64,000 nt of DNA from an uncultured Candidatus Saccharibacteria bacterium (GCA_964574355.1 CAZNMD010000003.1:5316-69315), one strand, 5' to 3'. Shown: positions 17,305 to 61,025, counted from the first letter of the stretch. Made by a program: numbers and translations. The notes: generated by a model from the letters alone, not told the origin.

Positions 17305-19287
17305 ATGTCGGCTATAATAGAGATGAATATGGATGGGAACCCTATTTGTTATTTTGCTGAAACAGATGCGCGTAATAAGCGTGTAAAGTTTGGCATAAAA
17401 GAAAGAGATCGTACACGCCATATGTACGTCATTGGAAAGACGGGTATGGGTAAATCAACCTTGCTTGAAAATATGGCAATTCAAGATATGCAGCGAGGTG
17501 ATGGTATTGCGTTTATTGATCCTCACGGAAAAACAGCAGACCTTCTTTTAGAGTATGTTCCTGAATCGCGCATTAAAGATGTTTTGTATTTTGCACCGTT
17601 TGATCTTGAGTACCCCATTTCTTTTAATGTGATGGAAGATGTCGGTATGGATAAGCGGCACTTGGTGGTTTCTGGTCTCATGAGTGCGTTTAAGAAAATT
17701 TGGCTCGATGCGTGGTCTGCCCGTATGGAGTACATATTGAGTAATATTCTTTTGGCACTTCTTGAATATCCTGGTTCAACAATTCTTGGAGTGAATCGTA
17801 TGCTTGCTGATAAGGATTATCGCAAGAAGGTTGTTGAAAACGTGAAGGATGTATCAGTTCGAGCATTTTGGCTTGATGAGTTTGCAAAGTATGGTGATCG
17901 ATATATGCAAGAGGCGGGAGCAGCAATTCAAAATAAAGTTGGTCAATTTGTAAGTAATCCGCTGATTCGTAATATTATCGGTCAGCCACAATCAACATTT
18001 GATTTACGAGCAATGATGGATCAGAGAAAGATTATCATTGTGAATCTTTCAAAAGGTCGGGTTGGTGAACAGAACGCAAATCTTTTGGGTAGTATGTTTG
18101 TGACCAAGTTGTATCTTGCGGCAATGTCTCGTGCTGATTTAAGTGATGCTGCACTTGCTCGTTCGCCAAATTTTAATTTGTATGTGGATGAGTTTCAATC
18201 GTTTGCTAATGAGTCCTTTGCAAACATTCTTTCTGAGGCTCGCAAATATCGTCTTTCTTTAACGATTGCCCATCAATACATTGAACAAATGTCGGAAGAA
18301 GTTCGAGCGGCGGTATTTGGAAACGTGGGGACGATGGTTGTGTTTCGTGTGGGTGCATATGATGCTGAAATTCTTGAGAAGGAATATGCTCCACGATTTA
18401 CTGCTGAAGATATTGTAAATCTTGGTTTCGCTCAGATTTATTTGAAACTCATGATTGATGGTGTTACTTCGCCGCCATTTTCTGCAACAACATTGCCGCC
18501 ACTTGAAAAGGCGCCGGTTTCTTTTCGCGATGATGTTATTGAATGGACAAGACGAACCTATGCAAGAAATCGTGCAGAGGTTGAAGTTGATATTCGTACC
18601 TGGAGTGAAAATGAGCGACCAGCTGAAGGATCGCATGACGCGAAGCGAAAACCTCAACCGTCCCGTGGAGTTTCTGATAGAGCGCCAGATGCCCGTGTAC
18701 GAACCGCAGAAGTTCGAAGACAGCCTATCCCTCCTCGTGAATATCGTTCGGTTCAAGTCCCTGAACTTTCTGGGAGCGCGGTTTCAAAAGCTACTCCTCC
18801 TGTTGTTGAGAGCCCGGTTGTGGCACCAAATGTGTCATTAACACCTTTACCAAAAATAGAAGGTGGGGAAGGAGGTTTTGTTTCTCTTAAAGATCTTAAG
18901 TCTGGGGCGGTAGTTTCTACATCCGTCTCTCCTCGTGCTCCTAAAATAATTTCAAGAGAAAAACCTGTTATATCTCAACAGCCCTCTGTTCGTGTTGATC
19001 AAGGTTCAAAAAAGGAAACGTTGGTTGGTGCTCAAGATCAAAAATCGGTTCTTCGAGACGCTCTTGCATCAGTATTGAAGAATAACGCTCCAATAGATCA
19101 TCAGCATCAACCATCAGGACATGTTCAAAAAAATCAATCTGTACATTCAACAACCTCGGGTCATCATCGGCCACATCCTCCCCAGGTTAGTTCTTCTGGA
19201 GAAGTGCATGAAACTAAGTCAAAGGCAGGAGAAGTTTCTGTTGATGAAGTAAGGCGTATTTTAGATATTCCTCGACCAAAAGAATGA
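17305..19287 (+). CDS. Soluble FtsK/TraD/VirD4-like (type-IV-coupling-protein-like) P-loop ATPase with a C-terminal low-complexity tail of about 250 aa.
   Basis: Walker A VIGKTGMGKST. Walker B NLYVDEFQSF. …RKYRLSLTIAHQYIEQM… resembles the TrwB_AAD_bind / TraG-D_C family. There are no N-terminal TM segments. The tail is P/S/V/K/R-rich. Confidence 0.6.
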   Translation: MSAIIEMNMDGNPICYFAETDARNKRVKFGIKERDRTRHMYVIGKTGMGKSTLLENMAIQDMQRGDGIAFIDPHGKTADLLLEYVPESRIKDVLYFAPFDLEYPISFNVMEDVGMDKRHLVVSGLMSAFKKIWLDAWSARMEYILSNILLALLEYPGSTILGVNRMLADKDYRKKVVENVKDVSVRAFWLDEFAKYGDRYMQEAGAAIQNKVGQFVSNPLIRNIIGQPQSTFDLRAMMDQRKIIIVNLSKGRVGEQNANLLGSMFVTKLYLAAMSRADLSDAALARSPNFNLYVDEFQSFANESFANILSEARKYRLSLTIAHQYIEQMSEEVRAAVFGNVGTMVVFRVGAYDAEILEKEYAPRFTAEDIVNLGFAQIYLKLMIDGVTSPPFSATTLPPLEKAPVSFRDDVIEWTRRTYARNRAEVEVDIRTWSENERPAEGSHDAKRKPQPSRGVSDRAPDARVRTAEVRRQPIPPREYRSVQVPELSGSAVSKATPPVVESPVVAPNVSLTPLPKIEGGEGGFVSLKDLKSGAVVSTSVSPRAPKIISREKPVISQQPSVRVDQGSKKETLVGAQDQKSVLRDALASVLKNNAPIDHQHQPSGHVQKNQSVHSTTSGHHRPHPPQVSSSGEVHETKSKAGEVSVDEVRRILDIPRPKE

Positions 19288-20738
19288 TAAAAATTTTGTT
19301 TATAACTACATTCGTTATATATGCGTTTACGCAAAACGCATATGCCCAGGTAGTGATAAACGAGATTATGTATGATGTTGCGGGAGGTGACGATGGCCAC
19401 GAATGGATTGAGGTAAAAAATACAGGTACTACGGCTATCGATCTTTCCTTGTATCGCTTTTTTGAGGCGGGAGTACATCATAAACTTAGTGCTGTTTTAG
19501 GTACGACTCTTTCTTCTGGCGGGTATGCAGTTATTGCTGATGATGCAGTAAAATTTCAAATTGATTTTCCTTCTTTTTCCGGAGTTCTTTATGACAGTTC
19601 ATTTTCTCTTTCAAATGTGGGGGAAACACTTTCTATAAAGCTTGACGATAGTGTTATTGATTCTGTGAGTTATGTTCCGAGTGAGTTAGCTAATGGTACT
19701 GGTGCCACACTTCAGAAGGTTGGATCGTCTTTTGTTTCGCTTGCTGCTACTCCTGGAGCTTCATCTGATGCAGGGAATCCTGTTGTGAATGAACCACCTG
19801 GGACCGAAGATCCAAATACTCCAAGTAATCAATCTTCACAAAATTCATCGAGTGGAAGTGGAGGAACAGTAGCTGATCCTGATCCGACTCGAATTGTTCC
19901 AGATGCGGGGGCGGATCAAACTGTGATTGCGGGCGCGCCTGTCCTTATGTCTGGTAAAGCCAGTATTGGAGGAAAACCAGTTTCTGATACAGCACGCTTT
20001 TTGTGGAATTTCGGAGACGGCGCCACGTTTATTGGCCGTACCACAAATCATGTGTATCGATCGCCTGGACGATATGTGGTCTCGCTTTCTGTGTCTTCTG
20101 GTGAAACGAGTGCTACCGATATGCTTACCATCACTGTTGTTGAATCGCCAATATCGATTGCGTCAACGGTTCCTGGTCCGGAGGGGTATGTCTCCTTATT
20201 CAATGCCTCGAAAGGTGTTGTTGATATTTCAACATGGTATCTTCAGGTTAAAGAACAGATATTTGTTTTTCCTCCCGGTACGTTTATTGCTGGTTCATCG
20301 GTTGTGCGTTTTGATGCGGCTATAACCAGGCTTTCTTTCGCTTCACCTCAAGAAGTGTTTTTGCGTTTTCCAAATGGAAAAGAGGCTTCTGTTGGTATAC
20401 AGGATGTTGTTACCCCAAAAGCTGCTGTTTCTGTTCAGGCGACCCCAAAACCTCACGTTGATCAATCAAAAATGACAACAGCTCCTGAAAAGGGTCTTTC
20501 AAAGAGCCTTGTTGTGGAAGCTGTTCCAGAAACACGCAAAGAAGAGGATGTTACAGATAAACTTTTACAAGGGGCATTAGTGGAAGAAACGATTGATCAG
20601 GGTCAAACACAAAAGAGTGGGATGTTTTGGTGGTATGGTGCACTTGTACTGGTTTTGGCTCTTGGCACGGTCGGAGTGATTTTGATTGAGAAAAAGAAGC
20701 CAGTGGACGAGTTTGAGATAATTGAGGCAGACGAGTAG
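19284..20738 (+). CDS. Secreted lamin-tail-domain (LTD)–PKD–LTD-like protein with a C-terminal TM anchor.
   Basis: Signal peptide MIKILFITTFVIYAFTQNAYA. LTD motif VVINEIMYDVAGGDDGHEWIEVKNTGTTAIDLS. PKD motif FLWNFGDGATF…HVYRSPGRY. C-terminal TM WWYGALVLVLALGTVGVILI. Its start overlaps the upstream stop (ATGA). Confidence 0.65.
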   Translation: MIKILFITTFVIYAFTQNAYAQVVINEIMYDVAGGDDGHEWIEVKNTGTTAIDLSLYRFFEAGVHHKLSAVLGTTLSSGGYAVIADDAVKFQIDFPSFSGVLYDSSFSLSNVGETLSIKLDDSVIDSVSYVPSELANGTGATLQKVGSSFVSLAATPGASSDAGNPVVNEPPGTEDPNTPSNQSSQNSSSGSGGTVADPDPTRIVPDAGADQTVIAGAPVLMSGKASIGGKPVSDTARFLWNFGDGATFIGRTTNHVYRSPGRYVVSLSVSSGETSATDMLTITVVESPISIASTVPGPEGYVSLFNASKGVVDISTWYLQVKEQIFVFPPGTFIAGSSVVRFDAAITRLSFASPQEVFLRFPNGKEASVGIQDVVTPKAAVSVQATPKPHVDQSKMTTAPEKGLSKSLVVEAVPETRKEEDVTDKLLQGALVEETIDQGQTQKSGMFWWYGALVLVLALGTVGVILIEKKKPVDEFEIIEADE

Positions 20739-22687: not shown

Positions 22688-22734
22688 ACAGCTCGCGTGT
22701 ATGCCAAATGTGGTGTACCGCGAGCTGTTTTTTT
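22688..22734 (+). terminator. Terminator located between convergent genes.
   Basis: ACAGCTCGCG…CGCGAGCTGT 10-bp stem followed by TTTTTTTATTTTTTT. Confidence 0.6.
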
Positions 22735-23782
22735 ATTTTTTTAAATATCGAAGTGTGCGGGCGATTGTATCGCGTATGCCACTTACTATTATTTTGAACC
22801 GATACAGCTCATTCGCTCCGTCTATAGTATAGCGAGGTAAACAAAAAAGATTTTTCGTATGCTCTGCTGTTCCGGGGATGGTTGTTAACGCAGCCTCATA
22901 TGTATTTTCTTTGAGAATGCGATAGGTGGTTGGGGTGAAATCATTACTTCCGCCGTTTGGATAGGCAAAAATACGTAAAGGGTTTTTTGTGTTTCGTTTT
23001 ACCGTTGCTGTTGAGTTTTGTATTTCCTTTCTAGCTTCTTCTTCTGATAGGTTTGATAGCACAGGATGAGAAACTGTGTGCGCCGCAAAAGTCATGCCGT
23101 TTGTCTCCATTTCTTGTATGTCTGGCCAGCTCATCGGTTCGTAGCCACTTCCTATAAGATTATCTGCCAGATTTTTTCCTGTTTTTCTAATCAGTTCATC
23201 AATAATCATGTCGACTTGTTGTGGAGGTAGCCTTTTAATTTTTGAACGTATTGTTTTATCTGCCTCTAGACGATTTTTTATTGTGTCGAGGGTAAAATGT
23301 TCTTTTCCTCCTTTTTGTTCCAAGGTGATATTTTTTTGTTCGGTTGTATTGATGGCATACTCGATTTGATCAACAGGAAGGGGAATATTCTTTTCAATAA
23401 AGTTAGTTGTTATAAAAAAAGTCGCAGGAACATTTTCTTTTTTAAGAATGGGGTAAGCTTCAGTAAAGTTGTTTTTATATCCGTCATCAAAGGTAATTGC
23501 GACCAAAGATCGAGAGAAAGGTTTTTTTGTGGCAACTGTTTCTACGAGTTCAGTAAGAGAAACAACGTCAAAGTTTTTTTTGAGATATATGAGGTGTTGC
23601 TCAAAAGCGCTTGGTGAAATGAATTTTTTTCTATAGTTAAAAATGCCACTTCCTTTTTGTGAGCTGACCCCGTGATATAAAAGAATAATCGCTTGTGGTT
23701 TTTTGAGTGATAGAATAAGGCGTGGGAGCCCTATAAAATCAATTATTCTCATGGCGATTGATATAAGTAATTTTGTGGACAT
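22733..23782 (-). CDS. Polysaccharide deacetylase (NodB homology / CE4) with an N-terminal TM helix.
   Basis: …LVAITFDDGYKNNFTEAYPILKKENVPATFFITTNFIE…. Confidence 0.8.
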   Translation of the reverse strand: MSTKLLISIAMRIIDFIGLPRLILSLKKPQAIILLYHGVSSQKGSGIFNYRKKFISPSAFEQHLIYLKKNFDVVSLTELVETVATKKPFSRSLVAITFDDGYKNNFTEAYPILKKENVPATFFITTNFIEKNIPLPVDQIEYAINTTEQKNITLEQKGGKEHFTLDTIKNRLEADKTIRSKIKRLPPQQVDMIIDELIRKTGKNLADNLIGSGYEPMSWPDIQEMETNGMTFAAHTVSHPVLSNLSEEEARKEIQNSTATVKRNTKNPLRIFAYPNGGSNDFTPTTYRILKENTYEAALTTIPGTAEHTKNLFCLPRYTIDGANELYRFKIIVSGIRDTIARTLRYLKK

Positions 23783-23873
23783 GAGTTAGTGGGTGAGTCC
23801 TTCTCTCTCGGTGGGTTCTATTATAGGATGAGAATTCTTAAAAAAGAATTGTTTGATGGTTCGTGGTTAACGT

Positions 23874-25610
23874 ATGCAACAGAATATACAAAAACGTGCA
23901 CCGGTGTTGGTTCTGGGAGATAGTATGCGAAGTACGCTCGCGGTTGTTCGATCGTTGGGGCGACGGGGTATTTCTGTGCATCTTGGTGTGTCTTACGTAA
24001 CCCTTTCTGTTACACGTTCCAAGTATGTGAGGCGTGTCATTGTATTACCCTCGGAGAAACACCACCGTTCTGCCTGGCTTCAGACGCTCCTTAAGATTGT
24101 CGAGGAGACGTCATACTCGCTCTTGATTCCGACGACTGAAGGGGTTGCGCTTCCGGTGATTGAAGACCAAAAAGTCATTGAGCCTTTTGTTCGCCTTGCC
24201 GTCCCTTCCTTTTCTTTGTTTGAAGAGACGTTTGATAAAAGAAAAACGGTCGAACTTGCAAAGGCTTCTAATGTCCCTTTTCCAAAAACAGCAATCATAG
24301 AAACAGAACAGATGTTGGAAGAAATTCTAGGAAAGGCAACATTTCCCCTTGTTATTAAACCAGCATTTTCAAAGAAAACGACCAAAGAAAACCAGGTTGG
24401 GCTGAGTGTGAGCGTTGCGAAAACGAAAGAGGAGGCTCGTGAACTGGCTTTGGTTCGATTACGTCAGGTGCCGGTTCTTTTTCAGGAGTATGTTGCAGGG
24501 GTTGGTGTTGGGCAAGAATTTTTGTGTGACAATGGAAAAATTCTTCTTTCATTTCAACATGAGCGAGTCCGAGAACAGTCAGGAAGTGGGGGAAGTACAT
24601 ATCGGGTGAGTGCTTCACTTCATCCAGGCATGCTAGAAGCGTCAAAGAAAATGCTTGAAAAGATTAACTGGACGGGGGTTGTTATGGTTGAGTATCGTTG
24701 GAATAAAGATACTGATTCTTTTTTTCTTATAGAGATTAATGGGAGGTTGTGGGGTTCGTTGCCGCTTCCAGTCGCTCTTTCGGTTGATTTTCCGTATGCC
24801 ATGTATTCTTTTTTTGTCGAAGGGAAAAAAGATTTTTCGGGAACGTATAAAACAGGAGTGTATGGGCGTGATGTTTTTTCCGATGTTCGTCTTTTGTTAA
24901 GGTTGTCACGTTCTTTGGGAGTCATGTTTTTGATGAAGGAATTTTTTGTTGCTTTTAGTCGGATTATGATGGGGCGCGAACGGTGGGATATGGTTGCTTT
25001 TGACGATATGTATCCTGCACTTAAAGAGACTATGCGAGTTGCTAAAAAAGAGTTTGAACAATTGAGTCGTGCTGTAGGTGTTGTGGTACGAAACAAGGTA
25101 CGTCGTTTATCGGTTACCAAGCGATTAAAAACCGAGTGTATTAATTCTCTTGCTGAGGCAAAAAATATTTTGTTTGTGTGTTATGGGAACGTTAACCGTA
25201 GTGTTTTCGCTGAGCAGTATACCCGAAGTATTCTTTCCGAAAAACAAAAAGAATTTTTTACAGTACGGTCGGCAGGAACAATTTCAAAAGAGGGCAGAGA
25301 GGCCTCTTTTGAGGCACAAGAAATCGCGAAAAAATATGGTGTGTCGCTCGATACACACCGTTCTGTTTCGGTTTCCCCAAAGATTATTGATGAAGCTGAT
25401 CTTATTTTTTATGTTGATACGAAAACTCGTAATGAATTGTTGAGTCGTTTTTCTGGAGCGGCAAAAAAAATGTATCCATTAAGTTTTCTTGCCAGTGACG
25501 TGCCGGAAGAAATTGATGATCCTTATGGTAAGGATAGTGATTACTTTAGAAGGGTATTTGATTATATAAAGAAGAGCGTTGATGCTTTGTATGTACATAT
25601 GAAGCCGTGA
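23874..25610 (+). CDS. Fusion protein: an N-terminal ATP-grasp ligase domain (about 420 aa) joined to a C-terminal low-molecular-weight protein-tyrosine-phosphatase domain.
   Basis: ATP-grasp end motif …FLIEINGRLWGS…. LMW-PTP P-loop ILFVCYGNVNRSVFAEQY (C-x5-R-S) and a DPYG general-acid motif. Confidence 0.7.
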   Translation: MQQNIQKRAPVLVLGDSMRSTLAVVRSLGRRGISVHLGVSYVTLSVTRSKYVRRVIVLPSEKHHRSAWLQTLLKIVEETSYSLLIPTTEGVALPVIEDQKVIEPFVRLAVPSFSLFEETFDKRKTVELAKASNVPFPKTAIIETEQMLEEILGKATFPLVIKPAFSKKTTKENQVGLSVSVAKTKEEARELALVRLRQVPVLFQEYVAGVGVGQEFLCDNGKILLSFQHERVREQSGSGGSTYRVSASLHPGMLEASKKMLEKINWTGVVMVEYRWNKDTDSFFLIEINGRLWGSLPLPVALSVDFPYAMYSFFVEGKKDFSGTYKTGVYGRDVFSDVRLLLRLSRSLGVMFLMKEFFVAFSRIMMGRERWDMVAFDDMYPALKETMRVAKKEFEQLSRAVGVVVRNKVRRLSVTKRLKTECINSLAEAKNILFVCYGNVNRSVFAEQYTRSILSEKQKEFFTVRSAGTISKEGREASFEAQEIAKKYGVSLDTHRSVSVSPKIIDEADLIFYVDTKTRNELLSRFSGAAKKMYPLSFLASDVPEEIDDPYGKDSDYFRRVFDYIKKSVDALYVHMKP

Positions 25611-25765: not shown

Positions 25766-25795
25766 ATTGACATTTATATACATTTTATGCTATAA
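25766..25795 (+). promoter_or_regulatory. Consensus sigma-70 promoter TTGACA-N18-TATAAT for the GC-rich 'island D'.
   Basis: Both hexamers are perfect consensus. Confidence 0.55.
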
Positions 25796-25902
25796 TTAGC
25801 ATAGATTTTGGATAGGTCTAAAGGTCGATTATTTTGCCAAAGGCGAGATAAGGAAACAGACAGAGGATATGTCCGAAACAAAGAAAGGATAGGTTCATTG
25901 AT

Positions 25903-26619
25903 ATGAACGCGTCTGAATTCGGTTGTGGTCACGCTCATCAAGTTGCGATTACAGCAGCGAAAGCTGGCTGGGAGATCGCTGATTTCACAGCTCTTCAACA
26001 AAGTGAAGAACTTTGTCGAGTTGTCCTTGGAGTCATTCGAAACGGTGGTTTACCGACTGGACTCGGTTCTACTGAGGAGCAACTCGTTTCATGGAGAAAC
26101 TTCTACACGAAGTATTTCGGCATCGAATGTGGAGACATTAAAATCCCAACTCGCACTATCGGTTTCGACCGACTCATTGTTGTTCCGCAAGGGATCACAA
26201 TGAACCGGATCGTTGAGGTGGCGCGAAAGCAGATTGAGATTTCTCTCTATGTCGAAGATCTTGATGCAAACGTTCCGACCAACGACCGGGATCCGAAGAG
26301 TGGTGGCTATGCCATTTGGGTTCGCGAACGACAAGAAGCCGATGAGGAACTCAAAAACCTCTCAGCGATCGCACTCGCAGAGAAAAGTGTAAAAGGAATC
26401 ACACTTCTCGAACGCCTCCTTTACGGTTTCAAGTATTTTCTCGAGACCGAAAAGTGTCTCGACGAGACGAACTGGACACTGTGTTCAGGTTCCCGCGGTT
26501 TGGATGGCGATGTGCCGCGCGTGCGTTGGAATCCCGATGCTCGTTGCGTGGGGGTCTATTGGTCGTATCTGCGGGGTGCGCGTGTGTTCCTCCGTTCCCG
26601 TGCAGTTGTTACCTTGTAA
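25903..26619 (+). CDS. Hypothetical 238-aa protein with no recognisable family. It is the G+C-rich 'island D'.
   Basis: GGATAGG RBS 9 nt upstream of the ATG. GC-rich codons. Confidence 0.55.
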   Translation: MNASEFGCGHAHQVAITAAKAGWEIADFTALQQSEELCRVVLGVIRNGGLPTGLGSTEEQLVSWRNFYTKYFGIECGDIKIPTRTIGFDRLIVVPQGITMNRIVEVARKQIEISLYVEDLDANVPTNDRDPKSGGYAIWVRERQEADEELKNLSAIALAEKSVKGITLLERLLYGFKYFLETEKCLDETNWTLCSGSRGLDGDVPRVRWNPDARCVGVYWSYLRGARVFLRSRAVVTL

Positions 26620-26813: not shown

Positions 26814-26849
26814 ATATGCGAATTTTGATTGCTACAGGGATTTATCCGC
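26814..26849 (+). repeat. Direct repeat, copy 2. It lies at the true start of the GT gene.
   Basis: Identical to 25676..25711. Confidence 0.9.
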
Positions 26850-27826
26850 CAGAGGTTGGTGGGCCGGCACGATATGCGGCCGAACTTCAAAGGATATGGA
26901 AAAAAGAAGGTGATGTTGTTTTTGTTGCGGTGGCGAGCCGATTTAAGTGGCTGCCCTTTATTGTGCGACAGGTCGCCTTTTTTAAGTGGTGCATAGTAAA
27001 AGCAGTTCGGGCGAATGTTATTTTTGCTCTCGATACTTTTTCTGCCGCAGTACCGGCATTTTATGCCGCACGAATTTTAAGAAAACCCTTTGTTGTTCGT
27101 GTTGGGGGAGATTTTTTATGGGAAATGTATACTGAACGTACAAAAAAAGACATAACACTTAAAACATTTTGTGAAAATATTCCACATGATCTATCAATAA
27201 AAGAAAAAATTGTTTTTTATTTTATACGAAATATGCTTCGTGGCGCCTCTCGGGTGATATTTTCTGTTCCTTGGTATGAGACACTTGCAAAAAAAGCATA
27301 TGGGCCATTGAGAACCAGTAGTATTGTTGAAAATCCAAATGGTCCACGAGAACGTTCTTACGAACCGCAGAAAAAAGTGTTTCTTTTGGCTGGCAGAAAA
27401 ATGTTTTTAAAAAATGCTGATCGTTTTAGAAAAGCATTTGTGGAAGCGCAAAAACATAGTGATATTAGTTTTGTTGAGGATAGGGTTTCTCGAGAAAAAT
27501 ATATTGAACTATTAAAAACATGTTATGTGGTTGCGATTCCATCACTTTCTGAGGTGAGTCCAAATACCGCCCTTGATGCTATTCGTTTTGGTAAGCCAAT
27601 TATTTTAACAAAAGAGTGTGGATATGCTGAACGTTTTGGTGCGGCGGCAGTGTTGGTTGATCCATTAAGTGAGGTCTCAATTCGGTCTGCTATCGAGTTA
27701 TTGAGTTCATCTGTTGCGTATGCTGAGGCGGCGCGCGCCGCAGAAGCAATTTCTTGTACAAGAAATTTTGAAGAAGTGGCGTTAGAAATTCGCGGTATCA
27801 TAAAGGATATATGCGCGTTATCGTAA
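26816..27826 (+). CDS. Glycosyltransferase (GT-B, GT4-like).
   Basis: MRILIATGIYPPEVGGPARYAAEL…. Confidence 0.65.
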   Translation: MRILIATGIYPPEVGGPARYAAELQRIWKKEGDVVFVAVASRFKWLPFIVRQVAFFKWCIVKAVRANVIFALDTFSAAVPAFYAARILRKPFVVRVGGDFLWEMYTERTKKDITLKTFCENIPHDLSIKEKIVFYFIRNMLRGASRVIFSVPWYETLAKKAYGPLRTSSIVENPNGPRERSYEPQKKVFLLAGRKMFLKNADRFRKAFVEAQKHSDISFVEDRVSREKYIELLKTCYVVAIPSLSEVSPNTALDAIRFGKPIILTKECGYAERFGAAAVLVDPLSEVSIRSAIELLSSSVAYAEAARAAEAISCTRNFEEVALEIRGIIKDICALS

Positions 27827-28977
27827 TTGGTTCAGAGAGAAATTTGTTTAAAGAGGGAAGTGCTGCCCGAGAACGTATCGCGGGATACGGGGCGCTTTTT
27901 GAGGAACTTCACCTTATTGTTTTTACTGGGCGAGGATCTGAATTTAGAGAACAAAAAATTGCTGATAATGTATTTGTGTATCCGACACGATCATGGTCAC
28001 GCTTTTTTTATGTTTTTGACGCAAAGAACATTGCTCGTCGACTACGGCGTTCTTTTTCGACTCATCCGTTGAGCGACTCACGGGTTGTTGTTTCTGCACA
28101 GGATCCTTTTGAAGCTGGTCTTGTTGCAAGGCAAGTGGCATCTTTGTTTCCTGCCAAACTTCATCTCCAGATTCATACGGATTTTTTGTCACCCTATTTT
28201 GGTTCCTCTGTTCTTAATCGGACGCGAGTTGCTATTGCAAAGAGAATTTTACCGTTCGCCGATTCTGTGCGGGTAGTCTCGAAGACGATAGAACAAGGGC
28301 TTGTTGAGTCCGGTCTGGTTGATAAAGAGAAAATAAGAGTACTCCCAATTTATGTTGATGGTTCGACTTTTGATGAACATGTCGTTATTGATTCTGATAC
28401 TGATTTACGAAAAAAATTTCCTGAATATAAATTTATTGCCCTTATGGCTTCGCGTTTAGCTCCTGAAAAAGATATGGGGCTTGCGATTCGAGCTATTGGA
28501 AAATTAGCAAAAGAAAATCAACATATTGGTCTTGTTTTAGTGGGTGAGGGGCCAGAAAAGCACCGTCTCATGAAACTCGCTGGTACCTGCGGAGCGGGAA
28601 AAAATGTTCGATTTCTTCCTTGGCAAAGACATTTAGGGAGTCTCTATAAGACGGCTAATGTATTTATCCTTACTTCTTCATTCGAGGGCTATGGAATGGC
28701 GCTGGTTGAAGCTGCTCTTTCGGGAACTCCTATTATTTCAACAAAGGTTGGTATCGCCGTTGAATTAAAAGATGGTAAGGAGGCTCTTTTGTGTGATGTT
28801 GGAGACGAAGAGTGTTTTCTTAAAAAAATGCGTCTTTTAGTGCATGATCATTCCCTGCGACAACTTCTTAAAGCAAATGCTCGTTTGTGGATGCTTTCTC
28901 ATTTGCCAGATAAAGAGACGTATCTCAGGCAGTATAAAGAATCATTTGAGCTTGCCTTTACTATAGGGGCCAGGTGA
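27811..28977 (+). CDS. Glycosyltransferase family 4.
   Basis: …SSFEGYGMALVEAALSGTPIISTKVG…. It overlaps the upstream gene by 16 nt. Confidence 0.75.
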   Translation: MRVIVIGSERNLFKEGSAARERIAGYGALFEELHLIVFTGRGSEFREQKIADNVFVYPTRSWSRFFYVFDAKNIARRLRRSFSTHPLSDSRVVVSAQDPFEAGLVARQVASLFPAKLHLQIHTDFLSPYFGSSVLNRTRVAIAKRILPFADSVRVVSKTIEQGLVESGLVDKEKIRVLPIYVDGSTFDEHVVIDSDTDLRKKFPEYKFIALMASRLAPEKDMGLAIRAIGKLAKENQHIGLVLVGEGPEKHRLMKLAGTCGAGKNVRFLPWQRHLGSLYKTANVFILTSSFEGYGMALVEAALSGTPIISTKVGIAVELKDGKEALLCDVGDEECFLKKMRLLVHDHSLRQLLKANARLWMLSHLPDKETYLRQYKESFELAFTIGAR

Positions 28978-29117
28978 TAATGCCCCGCGTGTCAGTTTCA
29001 ATGAAAAACAGTTTGGAAAAGACAAAGAGGGCGTTATGCTGTTGAGAGCCCTTGAAAAGAAAAATATAGAGTTGCTGGTTGATTCTCAAAAAGATCCTGA
29101 CCTTCTTCAAGGAGTAT

Positions 29118-30176
29118 ATGGTAAAAAAATTACTCATCGTCACACAAAAAGTAGATAAGAACGATCCCGTTCTTGGTTTTTTTCATACGTGGCTTTTGGA
29201 GTTTGCTAAACAAGTTGAACAGGTGATTGTAATCGGACTTTCGGTTGGGGAACATAATTTGCCGAAGAATGTTCGTGTGATTTCGCTTGAAAAAGAAAAG
29301 GGAAAAGGAAGAATTGCTCGAACAATAACTTTTTTACAAACCATTATTGCACTGAAAAGAGAGTATGATTCTGTGTTTGTTCATATGAACCCGGAATACG
29401 TCGCTCTTGCGGGACTTATATGGCAAGGAATGAGAAAAAAGGTTTCTTTGTGGTATACCCATCGAAATGTTGATCTCAAGTTAAAACTTGCTGTTACATT
29501 TTCTGACGTTGTTTTTACTGCGTCACCCGAAAGTTGTCGTATTAAAAGTAAAAAAATTAAAATTATTGGGCACGGAGTTGATGTTGATCTTTTTAATGCG
29601 GTTGTTCACGACAAATCAGTTGATGTAAATCGTACTATTCGCATTGCTCACATTGGTCGTATTACGCCGATAAAAAATTGCGAAACACTTATCGAAGCGA
29701 TTTCGTTGATAAATCGTGAGCGGCCCGTTAGTCTTACTTTTGTGGGAGGAGGGGTAATGGCAGGTGATACGTCGTACGAGGCCAATCTTTCTCGATTGAT
29801 TAAAGAGCGAGGTCTTGAAGATCAAGTGATTTTTAAGGGCAGTATTGTTCATGCGGCATTACCGGCATTTTTAAGTTCAGTTGATGTGACCATCAATGGT
29901 ACGCCAACGGGAGGCCTTGATAAGGTTGTGCTTGAATCAATGGCGGCCGGGGTACCTGTTTTGACTAGTAATACCTCTTTTTCGCCATTCTTTGGAGATA
30001 ATGCTTCACGACTTATCTTTAAAGAGCGTGATGCAAAAGATCTTGCTTTTAAAATAGTCGCACTGTGTTCAAGCCAAGATTTTTTATCCTTAGGCGAATT
30101 TCTTAAAAAAAGTGCTTCACGTTTCGGTATTCCACGTCTTATTGGTCAAATAATTACAGAACTTAAGACGGAATAA
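29118..30176 (+). CDS. Glycosyltransferase family 4.
   Basis: MVKKLLIVTQK…; …GGLDKVVLESMAAGVPVLTSN…. The ORF track starts at 29079 (TTG), but the ATG at 29118 is preferred. Confidence 0.75.
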   Translation: MVKKLLIVTQKVDKNDPVLGFFHTWLLEFAKQVEQVIVIGLSVGEHNLPKNVRVISLEKEKGKGRIARTITFLQTIIALKREYDSVFVHMNPEYVALAGLIWQGMRKKVSLWYTHRNVDLKLKLAVTFSDVVFTASPESCRIKSKKIKIIGHGVDVDLFNAVVHDKSVDVNRTIRIAHIGRITPIKNCETLIEAISLINRERPVSLTFVGGGVMAGDTSYEANLSRLIKERGLEDQVIFKGSIVHAALPAFLSSVDVTINGTPTGGLDKVVLESMAAGVPVLTSNTSFSPFFGDNASRLIFKERDAKDLAFKIVALCSSQDFLSLGEFLKKSASRFGIPRLIGQIITELKTE

Positions 30177-30220
30177 ATACAGTATTATTTCGGGACTTTT
30201 TATGATATCCTCAACCCACT

Positions 30221-31288
30221 ATGAGAGTATGCTATTTTGGCATCTTTGATCCGGCCTATTGTCGTAATAAAAACATCATTAAGGGCTTACGAAAAGCCGG
30301 AGTGGGTGTCATTGAGGTTATTGATACCACTCGGGGACCTATTAAATTTTGGCGGCTTTTGAAGAAGTACTGGCCGATTCGAAAAGATTATGATGCTATG
30401 ATTGTCGGTTTTCCGGGGCAAATTATTGTTCCGTTTGCAAAGCTTTTAACTCGCCGGCCAGTTATTTTTGATCTGCATGTTTCTTACTACGACAGTATCA
30501 TCAAAGAGAGAAAGCAATTTGGAGATAAAACTTGGGCTGCTCTTAAATTTTATCTCATGGATTGGGTCGCTTGTCGGATGGCTGATCTTGTACTACTTGA
30601 TACCGAAGAACATGTTCGTTATGTCGCCGAGCTTTTACACATTTCGCCGAAAAAATTTGGAGTGGTTCGACATGGTATAGATAATGAGCTTTTTGCTCCG
30701 CCGGCTGCTCGGGTGCAAAAAAATCCCGGCGATCCAATGATAGTTTCGTTCCATGGGTATATCCAACTTTTAAATGGAATGGATTTGGTTGTTCGGGCAA
30801 TGGATCAGCTTAAAAATGAACCCATAAAGCTTTGGATTATTGGTGGTGGTAGCGAGTATCCAAAAATGCAGACATTGGCCCGAGAATTGAATCTTTCTAA
30901 TGTAGAATTTTTCCCGCCGATGGCACCACCAGATTTGGCTAAAAAAATTGCTAATGCTGATGTTGGTTTAGGATTTTTCTCAAAGAGTTTAAAAATTGAT
31001 CGTGTGATTGCGAATAAGGTTGTTGAACTTATGGCTTTAAAGGTTCCGGTTCTGACAGGAGATTCTGTTGCGATGCGAGAGTGTTTTACTCAAAAGGAAG
31101 AAGTTTTTTATTGTGAACGAGGGAGTGTTGAATCTATTGTGGCGGCATTAAGGGAGTTGGCTCTAAAACCAGATATGCGCTCAAAAATTGCTGAAGGTGG
31201 GTATAAGAGGGTGACGGGTGGCATGACGTATGTTGATGCGGGTAAACAAACAGTTGCTCTTGTTGAGCGTTTTGTGAAATCAAAATAA
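30221..31288 (+). CDS. Glycosyltransferase family 4.
   Basis: …ELMALKVPVLTGDSVAMRECF…. Confidence 0.7.
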   Translation: MRVCYFGIFDPAYCRNKNIIKGLRKAGVGVIEVIDTTRGPIKFWRLLKKYWPIRKDYDAMIVGFPGQIIVPFAKLLTRRPVIFDLHVSYYDSIIKERKQFGDKTWAALKFYLMDWVACRMADLVLLDTEEHVRYVAELLHISPKKFGVVRHGIDNELFAPPAARVQKNPGDPMIVSFHGYIQLLNGMDLVVRAMDQLKNEPIKLWIIGGGSEYPKMQTLARELNLSNVEFFPPMAPPDLAKKIANADVGLGFFSKSLKIDRVIANKVVELMALKVPVLTGDSVAMRECFTQKEEVFYCERGSVESIVAALRELALKPDMRSKIAEGGYKRVTGGMTYVDAGKQTVALVERFVKSK

Positions 31289-44363: not shown

Positions 44364-46190
44364 TTAGACAGTGAGTTTATAGCGTTCAAAAAAATCTGCA
44401 AGAACAAAGATTGCATAATAACTATGCCCTAGAATAGGGAGCATTTCTTTCAGCCCGTTTCTGGTTTGCGTTTTATGTATACCAATATCAATCGTTGGTA
44501 TAAGGCCAGGGAAGGTTTTTTTGTACCATTCGAGGGCAGACAGGAGTTTTTCTGTCTGATGTTCGGCTAGTAGTTGCGAAATGGGAACACTGAAACCCTC
44601 TTTTTTTCGTTCAATAAGATTTTCTTTCAGTGTTGTTTTTAAGAATCGGCGAAGGGGTATTTTTCCGGTCTTACCTTCTCGTTTCCAGGTTGCTGGAGCG
44701 CCACCAACCAGGCGGAATAATTTTCGGTCAAGTAACGGGACTCGTCCCTCGATTCCATGGGCCATAGTTGTGGTATCGATTTTTAACAAGAGCTTATCAG
44801 GGAGAGCAATAAGTCGGTCAAATGCTAAACCTCGATCGGGGGTTTCTCGTTCTTTAATTCGTCCGCGAATACGTTCTTTAATTGAAGCATCTTGAACTAA
44901 ACCGGCGGAGGTGGCTGTTTCGGTTAAAAACAAACCAAGCGCGTCGCCGCGAATTGTTTTTATTCGACGAGTAATACCCCGGGCTATACGTAGGGGAAAA
45001 TGGGCAGGAGATAGAGGGAAGCCGAGACGTATGAGCGCATCAAGGGTTTTTCCTGTTCGTCCTGATTGAATGTCTGCAGAAAGGCCGGCAAGACGTTTTG
45101 CTCGTGGGTATCCGCCAAAAAGTTCGTCTCCCCCCTCTCCGGAGAGAACAACTTTTACTTCTTCTTTGGCTAATTTTGAAACGGTGTAGGTTGGCATTAG
45201 TGATGAGTCTCCAAGGGGTTCGTCCATGTGTGCGAGAGCTTCTTCGAGGAGTGTATTTGCGTGTGTTTCTGAAAGAGTGAATGTGTTTAATTTTATACCG
45301 CAATGCTCAGTAATCTTTCTTGCAAATTCAATATCCTTTTTCCCAGGAACTTCTACATGAAAGGCGGTTAGATGAACCCCTAGTTCTTTTAATGTGAGAG
45401 CAAGAACAGAAGAATCGATTCCACCTGAAAAGAAGAGACCTACAGGCACATCGGCAATGAGATGATGTTTTACAGAGTCAAAGAGGGTGGTTTTGAGCTC
45501 GTCGTCAGTTGGGGGTTCTTTGGTGGGTGCTTCAAGGCGAGATATATAAGATTTTTCTGTTGTATCAATAACATTAATGAGGATACTTTCTCCAGGGAGA
45601 AGGGAACGAGCATTTTTTAGTATTGTTTTTGGGGCAACGATGTAGCCCAAGAAAACAAGATCGCGCACGGCCTCGTGATCAATAGTCTTATTAATTTCTG
45701 GTAGAGCGAGTAATCCTCGAATTTCTGAGGATAATGCTATTGTTTTTTCATCTCGGTATAGGTATAAGGGTTTAATTCCAAAATGATCTCGTGAAAGAAA
45801 GAGTGTTTTGTTGTCACGATCATAAATTGCAAAAGCCCACATACCACGAAAGAGATCGACGCATGAAGGACCCCATTTTTCGTAGGCATATAAAATTACT
45901 TCAGTATCTGATCCTCCGCGGAAAGTTACACCAAGATGTTCAAGTTCATTTCTAAGGGTTGCGGCGTTATATACTTCACCATTGTAGACAATTGTGTAGC
46001 GACCATTTTGTGTGGTCATTGGTTGCGCCCCTGTTTCAGTAAGATCAACTATGGAAAGTCGATTATGACCAAGTGTGCATTGTGGAAACAGGGCGATGTT
46101 TGTCTGGTCTGGCCCACGATGAGCCGTGGCTTGATTCATGGCTTTAATCGCCTTTTCGTTGTTACCAAGGATACCATTGATGCCACACAT
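44364..46190 (-). CDS. asnB: Asparagine synthetase (glutamine-hydrolysing).
   Basis: MCGINGILG… N-terminal nucleophile. …LSGGIDSS… PP-loop. Confidence 0.85.
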   Translation of the reverse strand: MCGINGILGNNEKAIKAMNQATAHRGPDQTNIALFPQCTLGHNRLSIVDLTETGAQPMTTQNGRYTIVYNGEVYNAATLRNELEHLGVTFRGGSDTEVILYAYEKWGPSCVDLFRGMWAFAIYDRDNKTLFLSRDHFGIKPLYLYRDEKTIALSSEIRGLLALPEINKTIDHEAVRDLVFLGYIVAPKTILKNARSLLPGESILINVIDTTEKSYISRLEAPTKEPPTDDELKTTLFDSVKHHLIADVPVGLFFSGGIDSSVLALTLKELGVHLTAFHVEVPGKKDIEFARKITEHCGIKLNTFTLSETHANTLLEEALAHMDEPLGDSSLMPTYTVSKLAKEEVKVVLSGEGGDELFGGYPRAKRLAGLSADIQSGRTGKTLDALIRLGFPLSPAHFPLRIARGITRRIKTIRGDALGLFLTETATSAGLVQDASIKERIRGRIKERETPDRGLAFDRLIALPDKLLLKIDTTTMAHGIEGRVPLLDRKLFRLVGGAPATWKREGKTGKIPLRRFLKTTLKENLIERKKEGFSVPISQLLAEHQTEKLLSALEWYKKTFPGLIPTIDIGIHKTQTRNGLKEMLPILGHSYYAIFVLADFFERYKLTV

Positions 46191-56804: not shown

Positions 56805-58352
56805 ATGCTAGAACGCAAGAAAAAGCCGTGGGAGAGAGAAAAACTTGATTTTACGGGTCTCTTTACCTTTGAATTGGCTAATAATCATGGTGGTTCGGTT
56901 GAACATGGCCGACGAATAATCAGGGAAGTTGGTACGGTGGCAAAAAAGGCAGGTATTAAGGCGGCGTTTAAATTTCAGTTTCGTGACTTAGATACCTTTA
57001 TTCATCCTGATTACCGAAACGATAGAAACAACAAACACATAGCTCGTTTCCTTGGTACAGCATTATCAAAGAAGCAATTTAAAGAACTTGTGGAAGAGGT
57101 TCGTGCGAATGGTTTTTATACGATGGCAACGCCGTTTGACGAGAAATCGGTTGAACTGATTGAAGAGCTTGATATTGATATTGCAAAAGTGGCTTCTTGT
57201 TCGGCGAAGGATTGGCCTCTCTTAGAACGTATTATTGAGGCCGGTAAACCAATCATTGCCTCAACTGGCGGGCTGACCCTTGAGGAAATTGATAATCTTG
57301 TTTCATTTCTTGATCATAAATATGCACATTTTGCGATTATGCACTGTGTTTCTATTTATCCAACTCCTGTTGAAAAACTTGAATTAAATCAGATACAGTT
57401 GCTGTGTCGACGTTACCCAGGAGTTGCGATTGGTTTTTCAACCCATGAGAGTCCTGATAACTACGAGGCAATTCAAGTTGCGTATACAAAAGGAGCTACT
57501 ATTTTTGAAAGACATGTTGGTATTCCAACAGAAACAGTCCCTCTAAATAAATATTCTTCAACTCCTGATCAGGTGGGGAAATGGATTGATTCATATAAAC
57601 GAGCAGTTGCTTCAGTTGGCAGTAGTGAACGGGGTGAGCCTGATCCAGATGAGGTTCGTGATTTAAAATCGTTGATGCGGGGCGTCTTTGCAAAACGAGA
57701 TATTCGTCCCGGTGAAGAGATTCAAAAAGAAGATGTGTTTTTTGCAATTCCTCTTATGCCTGGGCAAATGACTTCTGGTGAATGGAAGCCGGGATTTATT
57801 GCTTCGAGCGCTCTTACTCGAGGTGCGCCATTACCAGCATCAATGTCTGTTGGTAGAAAAGAAAAAGGGCAGTATGTCTATCGTATCGTACATGAAGTAA
57901 AAGGATTTCTTCGTGAGGCCGGTATACCAGTTGTTCCAAGTATGGACGTAGAACTTTCTCATCATTACGGTATCGAACATTTTAGAGAGGTTGGTGCAAC
58001 GATTATTGATTGTATTAATCGTGATTATTGCAAAAAAATTATTGTTGTGTTGCCGGGCCAGAGGCATCCTTATCATCATCACAAAAAGAAAGAAGAAACT
58101 TTTCACGTGCTTTCAGGAGAGTTGATAATAGAAATAGAGGGTAGGGAAAAAATACTTGTTCCTGGTGATATTCAGGTGGTTGAACGAGGAATTCGACATT
58201 CTTTTTGGTCAAAGAAAGGTGTTGTGTTTGAAGAGGTTTCAACTACACACTTTAATAACGATTCAATTTATGAGGATCCAGCTATAAACAAGATGGCTCG
58301 GGAGGAGCGTAAGACAAAACTTGTTAATTGGGGAAGGCACCAATTTGAATAA
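56805..58352 (+). CDS. Sialic-acid-synthase-like protein (NeuB TIM barrel + SAF domain) fused to a C-terminal cupin domain.
   Basis: …ELANNHGGSVEHGRRII… NeuB. …PGEEIQKEDVFFAIP… SAF. …PYHHHKKKEETFHVLSGELIIEIEG… cupin. Confidence 0.75.
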   Translation: MLERKKKPWEREKLDFTGLFTFELANNHGGSVEHGRRIIREVGTVAKKAGIKAAFKFQFRDLDTFIHPDYRNDRNNKHIARFLGTALSKKQFKELVEEVRANGFYTMATPFDEKSVELIEELDIDIAKVASCSAKDWPLLERIIEAGKPIIASTGGLTLEEIDNLVSFLDHKYAHFAIMHCVSIYPTPVEKLELNQIQLLCRRYPGVAIGFSTHESPDNYEAIQVAYTKGATIFERHVGIPTETVPLNKYSSTPDQVGKWIDSYKRAVASVGSSERGEPDPDEVRDLKSLMRGVFAKRDIRPGEEIQKEDVFFAIPLMPGQMTSGEWKPGFIASSALTRGAPLPASMSVGRKEKGQYVYRIVHEVKGFLREAGIPVVPSMDVELSHHYGIEHFREVGATIIDCINRDYCKKIIVVLPGQRHPYHHHKKKEETFHVLSGELIIEIEGREKILVPGDIQVVERGIRHSFWSKKGVVFEEVSTTHFNNDSIYEDPAINKMAREERKTKLVNWGRHQFE

Positions 58353-60940: not shown

Positions 60941-61025
60941 TAACAAGTTGCCTCTTTTTTCTGCAGAGGTAGTATGAGGTGATATGTTGTTCAAATAATG
61001 TGTGGTTGCTCTAAAACATAAGGGT

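Follow-up and report, generated by a model that had tools for sequence, protein, structure and literature searches.

An ATP-grasp ligase fused to a tyrosine-phosphatase-type domain, a candidate glycan-tailoring enzyme from a Saccharibacteria polysaccharide locus

This study concerns a gene (23874-25610, plus strand) in a 64,000-nucleotide stretch of DNA from an uncultured Candidatus Saccharibacteria bacterium (GCA_964574355.1 CAZNMD010000003.1:5316-69315), hereafter the window. The gene encodes an ATP-grasp ligase fused to a protein-tyrosine phosphatase of low molecular weight (LMW-PTP), and its link to a polysaccharide de-N-acetylase is the most conserved feature of the genomic context of its family. 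We propose that it encodes a cytoplasmic bifunctional glycan-tailoring enzyme of a large uncharacterised exopolysaccharide (EPS)/surface-glycan family, which would work as described below. The de-N-acetylase encoded at 22733-23782 would de-N-acetylate an amino sugar of a nucleotide- or lipid-linked precursor, a step to which the genomic evidence points strongly. The ATP-grasp half would then activate a carboxylate, most likely that of an amino acid, as an acyl-phosphate and join it to the freed sugar amine, so that the unit would carry an N-aminoacyl or N-acyl sugar while still in the cytoplasm, ahead of its flipping by Wzx. In the last and weakest step, the C-terminal phosphotyrosine-type Cys phosphatase may remove tyrosine phosphates from polysaccharide assembly proteins, a Wzb-like job on a bacterial tyrosine kinase (BY-kinase) in systems that have one, done by a phosphatase that stays tethered to the tailoring enzyme. 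We put the probability of this three-step explanation as a whole at roughly 0.45. De-N-acetylation followed by re-acylation is a known logic, and what the family adds to it is best described, judging from its sequences, as an ATP-grasp ligase carrying an apparently clearly functional, unexplained tyrosine-phosphatase-type domain. The original prediction for this gene was of a bifunctional enzyme that couples an ATP-dependent ligation with a dephosphorylation step, or with an arsenate-reductase-like reaction, in glycan or peptide modification; both domains, their fusion and the deacetylase link were upheld, whereas arsenate reduction and the supposed rarity of the architecture were not.

The gene was found exactly as predicted, as a single unbroken open reading frame (ORF) of 578 residues plus stop with an ATG start, and comprises the following parts.

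23874-25610, plus strand: ATP-grasp ligase/helical linker/LMW-PTP fusion (ORF, Pfam and NCBIfam domains, AlphaFold2 model, kept architecture)
23874-24233, plus strand: N-terminal pre-ATP-grasp alpha/beta subdomain, residues 1-120 (strand/helix pattern of the AlphaFold2 model, invariant residues)
24234-24836, plus strand: ATP-grasp nucleotide-binding core, residues 121-321 (Pfam, invariant residues, Foldseek)
24732-24746, plus strand: E-I-N-G-R motif, the Mg-binding Glu/Asn and catalytic Arg of ATP-grasp enzymes (translation)
24837-25157, plus strand: helical linker or C-terminal extension of the ligase, residues 322-428 (AlphaFold2 helices, conserved acidic residues)
25158-25607, plus strand: LMW-PTP domain, residues 429-578 (PF01451, PDB sequence matches, family hidden Markov model (HMM))
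25179-25202, plus strand: P-loop C-Y-G-N-V-N-R-S, residues 436-443, with the nucleophile Cys436 and Arg442 (translation, alignment)
25518-25529, plus strand: D-P-Y-G general-acid loop, residues 549-552, with Asp549 (translation, alignment)

The division into an N-terminal ATP-grasp and a C-terminal LMW-PTP domain, first read from the sequence, was supported by a Pfam scan that found both above the curated cut-offs, with the ligase occupying residues 1 to about 330 and the linker following it; the motifs quoted earlier (EINGR, CYGNVNRS and DPYG) were present in the translation. An AlphaFold2 model, for which a 40-sequence family alignment served as the input, was confident over both halves (mean predicted local distance difference test score (pLDDT) 91.6, predicted template modelling score 0.75), and the pLDDT dipped to about 65-70 only at residues 400-420, within the linker helices. 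These helices lie at residues 334-348, 350-365, 380-409 and 413-428. R332, D378 and P381 of the linker were invariant in both family alignments (A1 and A2), while D337 and D372 were so in A2 and were kept by at least 90% of the sequences in A1. In the N-terminal subdomain, L12, V13, G15, R26, S27, L28, G29, S49 and P86 were invariant. The deposited NCBI gene call (P0001, 561 residues) begins at Met18 and drops the conserved first beta-strand VLVLG. The family keeps L12, V13 and G15 invariant, and the probable start is therefore taken to be the ATG at 23874.

For the ligase half, CPSase_L_D2 matched residues 121-297 (26.9 bits against a cut-off of 19.8) and ATP-grasp_3 scored 26.6 bits against 23.2; together with ATPgrasp_Ter these profiles spanned residues 121-316. 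The half thus combines a profile above threshold, the fold, the ATP-binding Lys and the E-x-N-x-R motif of ATP-grasp enzymes. K122, K162 (in FPLVIKP), E273, N289 and R291 were invariant in the 40-member alignment and in a second alignment, E287 was kept by all sequences of A2 and by at least 90% of those of A1, and the motif E.N.R.[WFY]GS was kept in 118 of 121 family members. With Foldseek, the N-terminal 330-360 residues matched ATP-grasp enzymes (probability 1.0, E about 1e-16), including carbamoyl-phosphate synthetase, biotin carboxylases, L-amino-acid ligases and PylC, and the best target-normalised template modelling scores were obtained with 2pn1 (0.80), PylC (0.66) and the L-amino-acid ligase 3vot (0.63). 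The closest solved relatives, namely the 'carbamoyl-phosphate-synthase-like' 2pn1/PRK12767, 3vot, RizA and PylC, are carboxylate-amine ligases or presumed to be so; unlike the fusion protein, to which they are 12-18% identical, 2pn1 and the allied ligases have neither a phosphatase nor the conserved helical extension (residues 322-428). The NCBIfam models PRK12767 and PRK06849 gave 46-65 bits against equivalog cut-offs of 218-406, and these families are relatives of the ligase half, which is a distinct family.

The phosphatase half matched PF01451 (LMWPc) over residues 432-572 with 80.4 bits against 23.2 (E 1.9e-22), covering profile positions 1-143 of 144, and it has both the C-X5-R-(S/T) P-loop and the DP general acid of the LMW-PTP superfamily. 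Among sequences in the PDB, solved LMW-PTPs were matched with E values of 2.5e-13 to 1e-5, the arginine phosphatase YwlE among them (E 1.5e-12). C436, G438, N439, R442, S443, D549 and P550 were invariant in 40 members. In the window protein, the Asp of the DP acid loop lies about 110 residues downstream of the P-loop. In a wider set of 121 members, all had the P-loop motif, and in most of them DP was followed by Y, W or F. Taking the two halves together, the catalytic residues were invariant in 40 diverse members and the motifs were kept in 118-121 of 121, which indicates that both activities are under selection, and both domains look catalytically competent.

Residue 5 of the P-loop bears on the kind of phosphatase. 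Thr at this position marks arginine phosphatases and Ile marks LMW-PTPs, the latter being inactive on phosphoserine and phosphothreonine (PMC7772506). Of the 121 members, 118 had Ile, three had Val and none had Thr; the window protein has Val. Since this position is Ile or Val and never Thr, the C-terminal domain is predicted to be a phosphotyrosine-type phosphatase. With the family HMM, a sequence taken to be E. coli Wzb scored 118 bits, above the 104 bits of YwlE. The NCBIfam models of Wzb and Etp (NF007520 and NF008486) gave 45.8 and 41.2 bits, below the equivalog cut-offs of 243 and 247. That the domain might instead be an arsenate reductase or an arginine phosphatase was considered because YwlE ranked among the best PDB matches, NCBIfam models of LMW-PTP-type ArsC gave sub-threshold matches (TIGR02691, 28.5 bits against 174; NF010053, 31.8 against 215) and UniRef names one homologue 'arsenate reductase/protein-tyrosine-phosphatase family'. 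Residues 429-578 hold a single Cys and the nucleophile Cys alone is invariant in the family, so that a three-cysteine thioredoxin relay is impossible; moreover, no ars genes were seen in any context examined, the context being always glycan synthesis, and the Thr diagnostic of arginine phosphatases was missing in all 121 members. We regard either identity as highly improbable, and with it the arsenate-reductase-like reaction suggested earlier.

Two P-loop subtypes were distinguished in the family. Among the 58 loci with CxGNICRS, the Pfam-less 'cluster 4' family described below was found in 24, a canonical CE4 deacetylase in 14 and a nearby BY-kinase in five. The 29 loci with CxGNINRS ('N6'), among them the window, loci with XrtA-associated hydrolases and that of a Saccharibacteria relative, had no cluster 4 and no BY-kinase within 10 kb. 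The second P-loop Cys, which in LMW-PTPs is thought to shield the nucleophile from oxidation, is replaced by Asn in the subtype of the window.

An independent assembly encodes a 577-residue protein that is 78% identical to the window protein, and more than 100 full-length homologues with 31-45% identity share the architecture. When one representative genome per species was scanned, the same architecture was found in at least 491 species genomes from about 15 phylum-level lineages. The bacterial carriers include Saccharibacteria, Nitrospirota, Planctomycetota, Acidobacteriota, Binatia, Poribacteria, Chloroflexota, Armatimonadota, Calditrichota, Rokubacteria, Bdellovibrio and Alpha-, Beta- and Gammaproteobacteria, and one Methanomassiliicoccaceae archaeon also carries it; the closest named relatives of the window protein come from Saccharibacteria and Adlerbacteria. 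Haliea salexigens DSM 19537, Stieleria tagensis and Bdellovibrio sp. HCB290 are cultured carriers, and three closed Vibrio alfacsensis plasmids encode the fusion, where PGAP labels it merely 'ATP-grasp domain-containing protein'; WP_322805275.1 is a V. alfacsensis homologue. A search with the ligase half alone returned 1,022 clusters at 50% identity (E <= 1e-30). A frameshift, a mis-assembly or two genes misread as one, which the original prediction had named among the outcomes that would undo it, is refuted by this conservation in independent assemblies, by the unbroken ORF and by the structured, conserved linker that joins the domains, and an artefact of this kind has a negligible probability. 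Nor is the architecture unusual in the sense of rare, as had been supposed: it is common in environmental bacteria, yet unstudied. We searched the literature and found no description of the fusion or of an ATP-grasp enzyme in such a context, and every NCBIfam model scored far below its own cut-off on the window protein; the annotation of the family is generic.

The genomic context was examined in 88 loci, namely the window and, for its relatives, neighbourhoods reaching up to 10 kb to either side, in which ORFs were called, neighbours were clustered and the clusters were labelled by HMMs seeded from Pfam-annotated genes. The 55 loci with at least 5 kb on both flanks served as the denominator for counts within 10 kb. 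The gene next to the fusion in the window, which had been noted as a polysaccharide deacetylase, matched PF01522 with 98 bits, and the counts below show that its position is no coincidence across the family. Two features precede the fusion.

22733-23782, minus strand: CE4/NodB polysaccharide de-N-acetylase, divergent, probable partner of the ligase (PF01522 98.4 bits, PgaB/IcaB-like NCBIfam matches)
23783-23873, no strand assigned: divergent intergenic region of 91 bp between the deacetylase and the fusion, 40% GC (coordinates, sequence)

A canonical CE4 was present within 10 kb in 23 of the 55 loci and cluster 4, a family of about 336 residues, in 18; one or the other was found in 40, and the two were nearly mutually exclusive (both in two loci). 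The CE4 or cluster 4 gene directly adjoined the fusion (<= 200 bp) in 37 of the 88 loci; in 35 the two genes share a strand, and a 4-nucleotide stop/start overlap is frequent. By comparison, glycosyltransferase family 4 (GT4), the commonest family, occurred in 40 loci but was adjacent in only five. The head-to-head order of the window, CE4 on the minus strand and fusion on the plus strand, recurs in a Saccharibacteria relative (L008), and a consensus scan found no promoter-like site in the 91-bp spacer. De-N-acetylases were also covalently fused to the ligase-phosphatase unit: CE4 precedes it in P0011 and P0205 and follows it in P0250, cluster 4 precedes it in P0156, and P0221 is a four-domain ligase-phosphatase-methyltransferase-PIG-L protein. 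Three kinds of de-N-acetylase, namely CE4, the NodB-like cluster 4 and the unrelated PIG-L, are thus joined to the unit. Other fused domains were a FemAB-like GNAT domain (PF13480, in 11 of 22 long forms), GT4, GT2, GINT1_N and methyltransferases. Architectures also include a tandem of two ATP-grasp domains and a phosphatase (P0138) and ATP-grasp with FemAB-like GNAT without phosphatase (P0218 and P0213). Three of five non-fused ligase paralogues in these loci lay near a NodB-like gene.

Cluster 4, for example L066:8973-9983 and genes in 23 other loci, is matched by no Pfam or NCBIfam model and is translationally coupled to the fusion gene. Its members share invariant T-E, H-x-H and H-S motifs and a nearly invariant Asp ahead of T-E. 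Alignment to the CE4 cluster with hhalign gave a probability of 90% (E 1.7e-6), four of 16 members had weak PF01522 matches, and profile matches in the PDB were NodB or polysaccharide-deacetylase chains in the same His-motif region (E 0.15-0.3). Cluster 4 is therefore probably a divergent NodB-type de-N-acetylase. In loci lacking a deacetylase, a DegT aminotransferase was tried as an alternative source of the amine and was found in none of 15. Three of the loci with no deacetylase-like gene, from Planctomycetota and Hyphomonas (L024, L038 and L046), have the gene order Wzy, APH-like kinase, fusion and sulfotransferase or GT61, and continue with an FkbM methyltransferase and a heparinase II/III-like protein; these gene sets hint at sulfated, glycosaminoglycan-like polymers.

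ATP-grasp enzymes activate a carboxylate as an acyl-phosphate and then pass it to an amine. Since three kinds of de-N-acetylase appear to have been recruited convergently to the ligase-phosphatase unit, the ligase probably acts on a sugar that has just been de-N-acetylated, and because the partner enzyme would yield a free sugar amine, N-acylation of a de-N-acetylated hexosamine is the simplest reading. The ligase most likely re-acylates, and more precisely aminoacylates, the freshly de-N-acetylated amino sugar, in the manner of VimE and VimA (below). The same order of events occurs in the MshB/MshC and BshB/BshC pathways, where GlcNAc is de-N-acetylated and an amino acid is then ligated ATP-dependently to the amine, with a GT4 enzyme acting upstream. 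PIG-L is the deacetylase family of MshB and BshB, and the likeness extends to P0221, in which a PIG-L domain is fused to the ligase-phosphatase unit. MshC and BshC differ in that they are not ATP-grasp enzymes and their products are small-molecule thiols, not polymers, whereas the fusion sits in a Wzx/Wzy polysaccharide locus.

The parallel with the best documentation is the Wbp/Vim pathway of Porphyromonas and Tannerella, in which VimE (CE4) removes the 2-N-acetyl group, VimA (TIGR03019 FemAB) adds Ser/Gly and WbpS (AsnB-like) makes a uronamide (PMC7468200). As in the context of the fusion, a CE4 enzyme exposes the amine, aminoacylation follows and an AsnB-like enzyme belongs to the pathway. 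TIGR03019 FemAB proteins, XrtA-type deacetylases and AsnB-like amidotransferases recur around the fusion, and members of the XrtA/PEP-CTERM FemAB family, to which VimA belongs, neighbour the fusion protein or are fused with it. The Vim pathway differs in that acyl transfer is performed by a GNAT/FemAB-like enzyme, not by an ATP-grasp enzyme, and no phosphatase takes part; the fusion side of the comparison is known from sequence.

The ligase might also work in the reverse sense, activating the C6 carboxylate of a uronic acid and joining a free amine to it to form a uronamide, as Cj1438C does in the HS:2 capsule of C. jejuni, where it ligates serinol phosphate or ethanolamine phosphate to GlcA and Cj1435 then dephosphorylates the product (PMC11800379). 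UDP-glucose dehydrogenase genes lay near the fusion in eight of the 55 loci and AsnB-like uronate amidotransferase genes within 10 kb in 21, so uronic acids are likely in these glycans, and one WbpS-like gene of this kind is found in the window.

44364-46190, minus strand: Asn-synthase-like glutamine amidotransferase, WbpS-like (PF00733 with GATase_6/7)

However, uronate amidation does not account for the tight pairing, frequently by translational coupling or covalent fusion, with de-N-acetylases of three kinds, the product of which is a sugar amine, and is less likely for this reason. In addition, Cj1438C is a member of the TupA-like family, whereas the five ATP-grasp families that Pfam listed at E <= 0.01, which include CPSase_L_D2, ATP-grasp_3, ATPgrasp_Ter and RimK, do not comprise it. 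We consider uronamide formation quite unlikely.

For the phosphatase half, a Wzb-like role is our leading guess, and dephosphorylation of proteins ranks first among its possible functions, tentatively and at somewhat less than even odds. Wzb, Etp and AmsI share with it the fold, the CX5R(S) P-loop with Ile/Val at position 5, the DP-aromatic acid loop and the setting in polysaccharide loci. They differ in being stand-alone proteins of about 150 residues, typically encoded beside wza and wzc, whereas here the domain forms the C-terminus of a 578-residue ligase. A BY-kinase was found within 10 kb in five of the 55 loci and was the adjacent gene in one (L045). From these counts it might be concluded that a BY-kinase is never associated with the fusion; this was softened by a complete 174-kb Vibrio alfacsensis plasmid, on which the fusion lies within an XrtA/PEP-CTERM system and is followed by a cluster 4 gene overlapping it by 4 nucleotides. 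An 'XrtA-associated tyrosine autokinase' (record positions 95278-96093), a chain-length determinant and an exporter are encoded 26 kb from the fusion, so neighbourhoods of 10 kb on each side undercount BY-kinases. The fusion carries the only LMW-PTP domain on this plasmid, and since the autokinase is present as well, a Wzb-like role is supported in XrtA-type systems. Some of the other loci are also bona fide XrtA/PEP-CTERM systems, with TIGR03100/03101 hydrolases and a TIGR03087 glycosyltransferase. A separate LMW-PTP gene was found in none of the 88 loci by the family HMM, which is sensitive enough to detect one.

On one of the Vibrio alfacsensis plasmids (NZ_CP140104.1, record 119244-123633; L090:29545-33934), genes for a cytidylyltransferase, a glutamine-amidotransferase-like hydrolase and a 995-residue PEP-utilising enzyme stand beside cysDN. 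We take this trio to resemble the phosphoramidate (MeOPN) genes Cj1416-Cj1418 of Campylobacter, and by this analogy the EPS of the plasmid may carry a P-N modification.

Several observations weigh against the proposed three steps. As the original prediction had stated, no BY-kinase is in view: the 64-kb window encodes no BY-kinase, Wzz or Wza, so that the kinase partner expected of a Wzb-type phosphatase in the same system was not found within it, and 50 of the 55 relatives' loci have no BY-kinase within 10 kb. The phosphatase occurs almost only in cis, 220 of 252 collected relatives being exactly ligase plus phosphatase; a phosphatase found almost only in cis and with sugar-acting partners suits chemistry in the same pathway at least as well as regulation. 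The phosphatase is missing from about 17% of the proteins most closely related to the ligase. Because these still pair with deacetylases, ligation evidently does not depend on a phosphatase. On the ligase side, the nearest solved relative, 2pn1 (E 7e-15 by profile), is itself without an assigned function, and no characterised close homologue emerged when the PDB was searched by structure with Foldseek and by sequence with a profile, the matches being otherwise generic ATP-grasp enzymes. The NodB assignment of cluster 4, finally, is a weak one that rests on remote homology.

Part of this evidence favours coupled chemistry on one substrate, in which the ligase would join a phosphorylated building block, or act on a phosphorylated glycoside, and the phosphatase would then remove the phosphate and make the step irreversible. 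The almost constant cis arrangement and the absence of BY-kinases from the window and from most neighbourhoods fit such a scheme, as do the fusions that join the phosphatase to sugar-acting domains, namely GT4, GT2, deacetylases, FemAB-like GNAT and methyltransferases. Genes for small-molecule kinase-like proteins of the APH family were found within 10 kb of the fusion in eight loci and adjacent to it in four. The combination of GT4, phosphatase, de-N-acetylase (PIG-L included), ATP-dependent ligase and GNAT parallels the mycothiol pathway, whose MshA/MshA2 step is a further precedent for dephosphorylation of a pathway intermediate. The Campylobacter pair Cj1438C and Cj1435 (PMC11800379) resembles the fusion in making an amide on a capsule sugar with an ATP-grasp enzyme and in having a dedicated dephosphorylation within a glycan locus. 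It is different, however, in that Cj1438C is TupA-like and activates the uronate carboxylate and Cj1435 is a separate HAD phosphatase; the fusion protein matches neither, and the known precedents of this kind use HAD phosphatases and TupA-type ATP-grasp enzymes unrelated to it. The active site also bears phosphotyrosine-specific marks, namely Ile/Val at position 5 and an aromatic residue after DP, and such enzymes are reported to be inactive on alkyl phosphates such as phosphoserine and phosphothreonine (PMC7772506). The phosphatase-less ligase paralogues that pair with deacetylases speak against a coupled reaction as well, and so do the BY-kinases of some relatives' systems, in which the fusion is the only LMW-PTP. 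We rank coupled chemistry second, as possible but somewhat unlikely.

A variant of this idea, which we hold to be doubtful, is that the fused LMW-PTP is not a protein phosphatase but a biosynthetic one that would act on a phosphorylated glycan or small-molecule intermediate that the ligase makes or uses. The module in this case would consist of deacetylase, ligase and phosphatase with optional GT4 and FemAB-like domains, and would install, as a self-contained unit, an aminoacyl or other acyl handle on a sugar, possibly the long-sought acceptor for proteins attached by the exosortase in XrtA/PEP-CTERM systems.

The three-step explanation, which we continue to favour, would have the following consequences. 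Cells equip sugars with amino-acid handles by first de-N-acetylating and then re-acylating them, as in the Porphyromonas linking sugar, mycothiol and bacillithiol, and the present family would be the ATP-grasp version of that step; it comprises about a thousand protein clusters and occurs in at least 491 species. Among the carriers are candidate-phyla bacteria, at least one archaeon and XrtA/PEP-CTERM EPS systems, which take part in the formation of flocs and biofilms. Should the ligase aminoacylate an EPS sugar, it would be a candidate for the attachment chemistry, and the product for the sugar acceptor, of exosortase substrates, an idea raised earlier for VimA-like proteins (PMC7468200). The phosphatase may supply the Wzb that XrtA-type systems seem to be missing, since on the plasmid examined an autokinase is encoded and no stand-alone phosphatase; alternatively, it may be the first case of an LMW-PTP fold taken into the biosynthetic chemistry of glycans. 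The Vibrio alfacsensis plasmids and the cultured Haliea, Stieleria and Bdellovibrio strains named above make experiments feasible.

In the window, the fusion belongs to a larger locus.

20748-62054, no strand assigned: Wzx/Wzy-type glycan biosynthesis locus surrounding the fusion (Pfam-annotated genes; the last ORF, 61002-62054, listed but not scanned)

The fusion had been placed just upstream of the glycan locus; it lies inside it, between a GT4 gene at 20748 and the GT4 genes that start at 26816. GT4 genes are found at 20748, 26816-31288 and 43204, and the locus also encodes epimerases/dehydratases, a GDP-mannose dehydratase, a DegT aminotransferase, NeuB, a cytidylyltransferase and methyltransferases, with Wzx at 46257. 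Two unusual fusions are encoded towards its end on the plus strand: a NeuB, SAF and Cupin_2 fusion of 515 residues (56805-58352) and an 813-residue protein in which Wzy_C (O-antigen ligase/polymerase-like) is joined to TPR repeats (58438-60879).

A perfect sigma-70 consensus was found 157 nucleotides past the stop of the fusion gene (25767-25796, plus strand; TTGACA, 18 nucleotides, TATAAT, with an upstream TG). It precedes an ORF of 238 residues (25903-26619, plus strand) that has no Pfam or NCBIfam match, and suggests that a separate transcription unit begins after the fusion gene. Ahead of the locus, 17305-19287 (plus strand) encodes a VirD4/TraG-like coupling ATPase whose C-terminal tail, about 250 residues long, is of low complexity, and its gene overlaps the start of a gene for a surface protein with a lamin-tail domain (LTD) and PKD (19284-20738, plus strand). 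The order LTD/PKD, GT4 and minus-strand CE4 is common to the window and a groundwater contig (L006). Taken with the Saccharibacteria and Adlerbacteria relatives of the fusion protein, this shared order points to a candidate-phyla (Patescibacteria) bacterium as the source of the window. A tRNA scan found no tRNA or tmRNA genes in the 64-kb window. GC skew was positive in every 2-kb bin of the window and nearly all genes are on the plus strand, which is consistent with a single replication arm.

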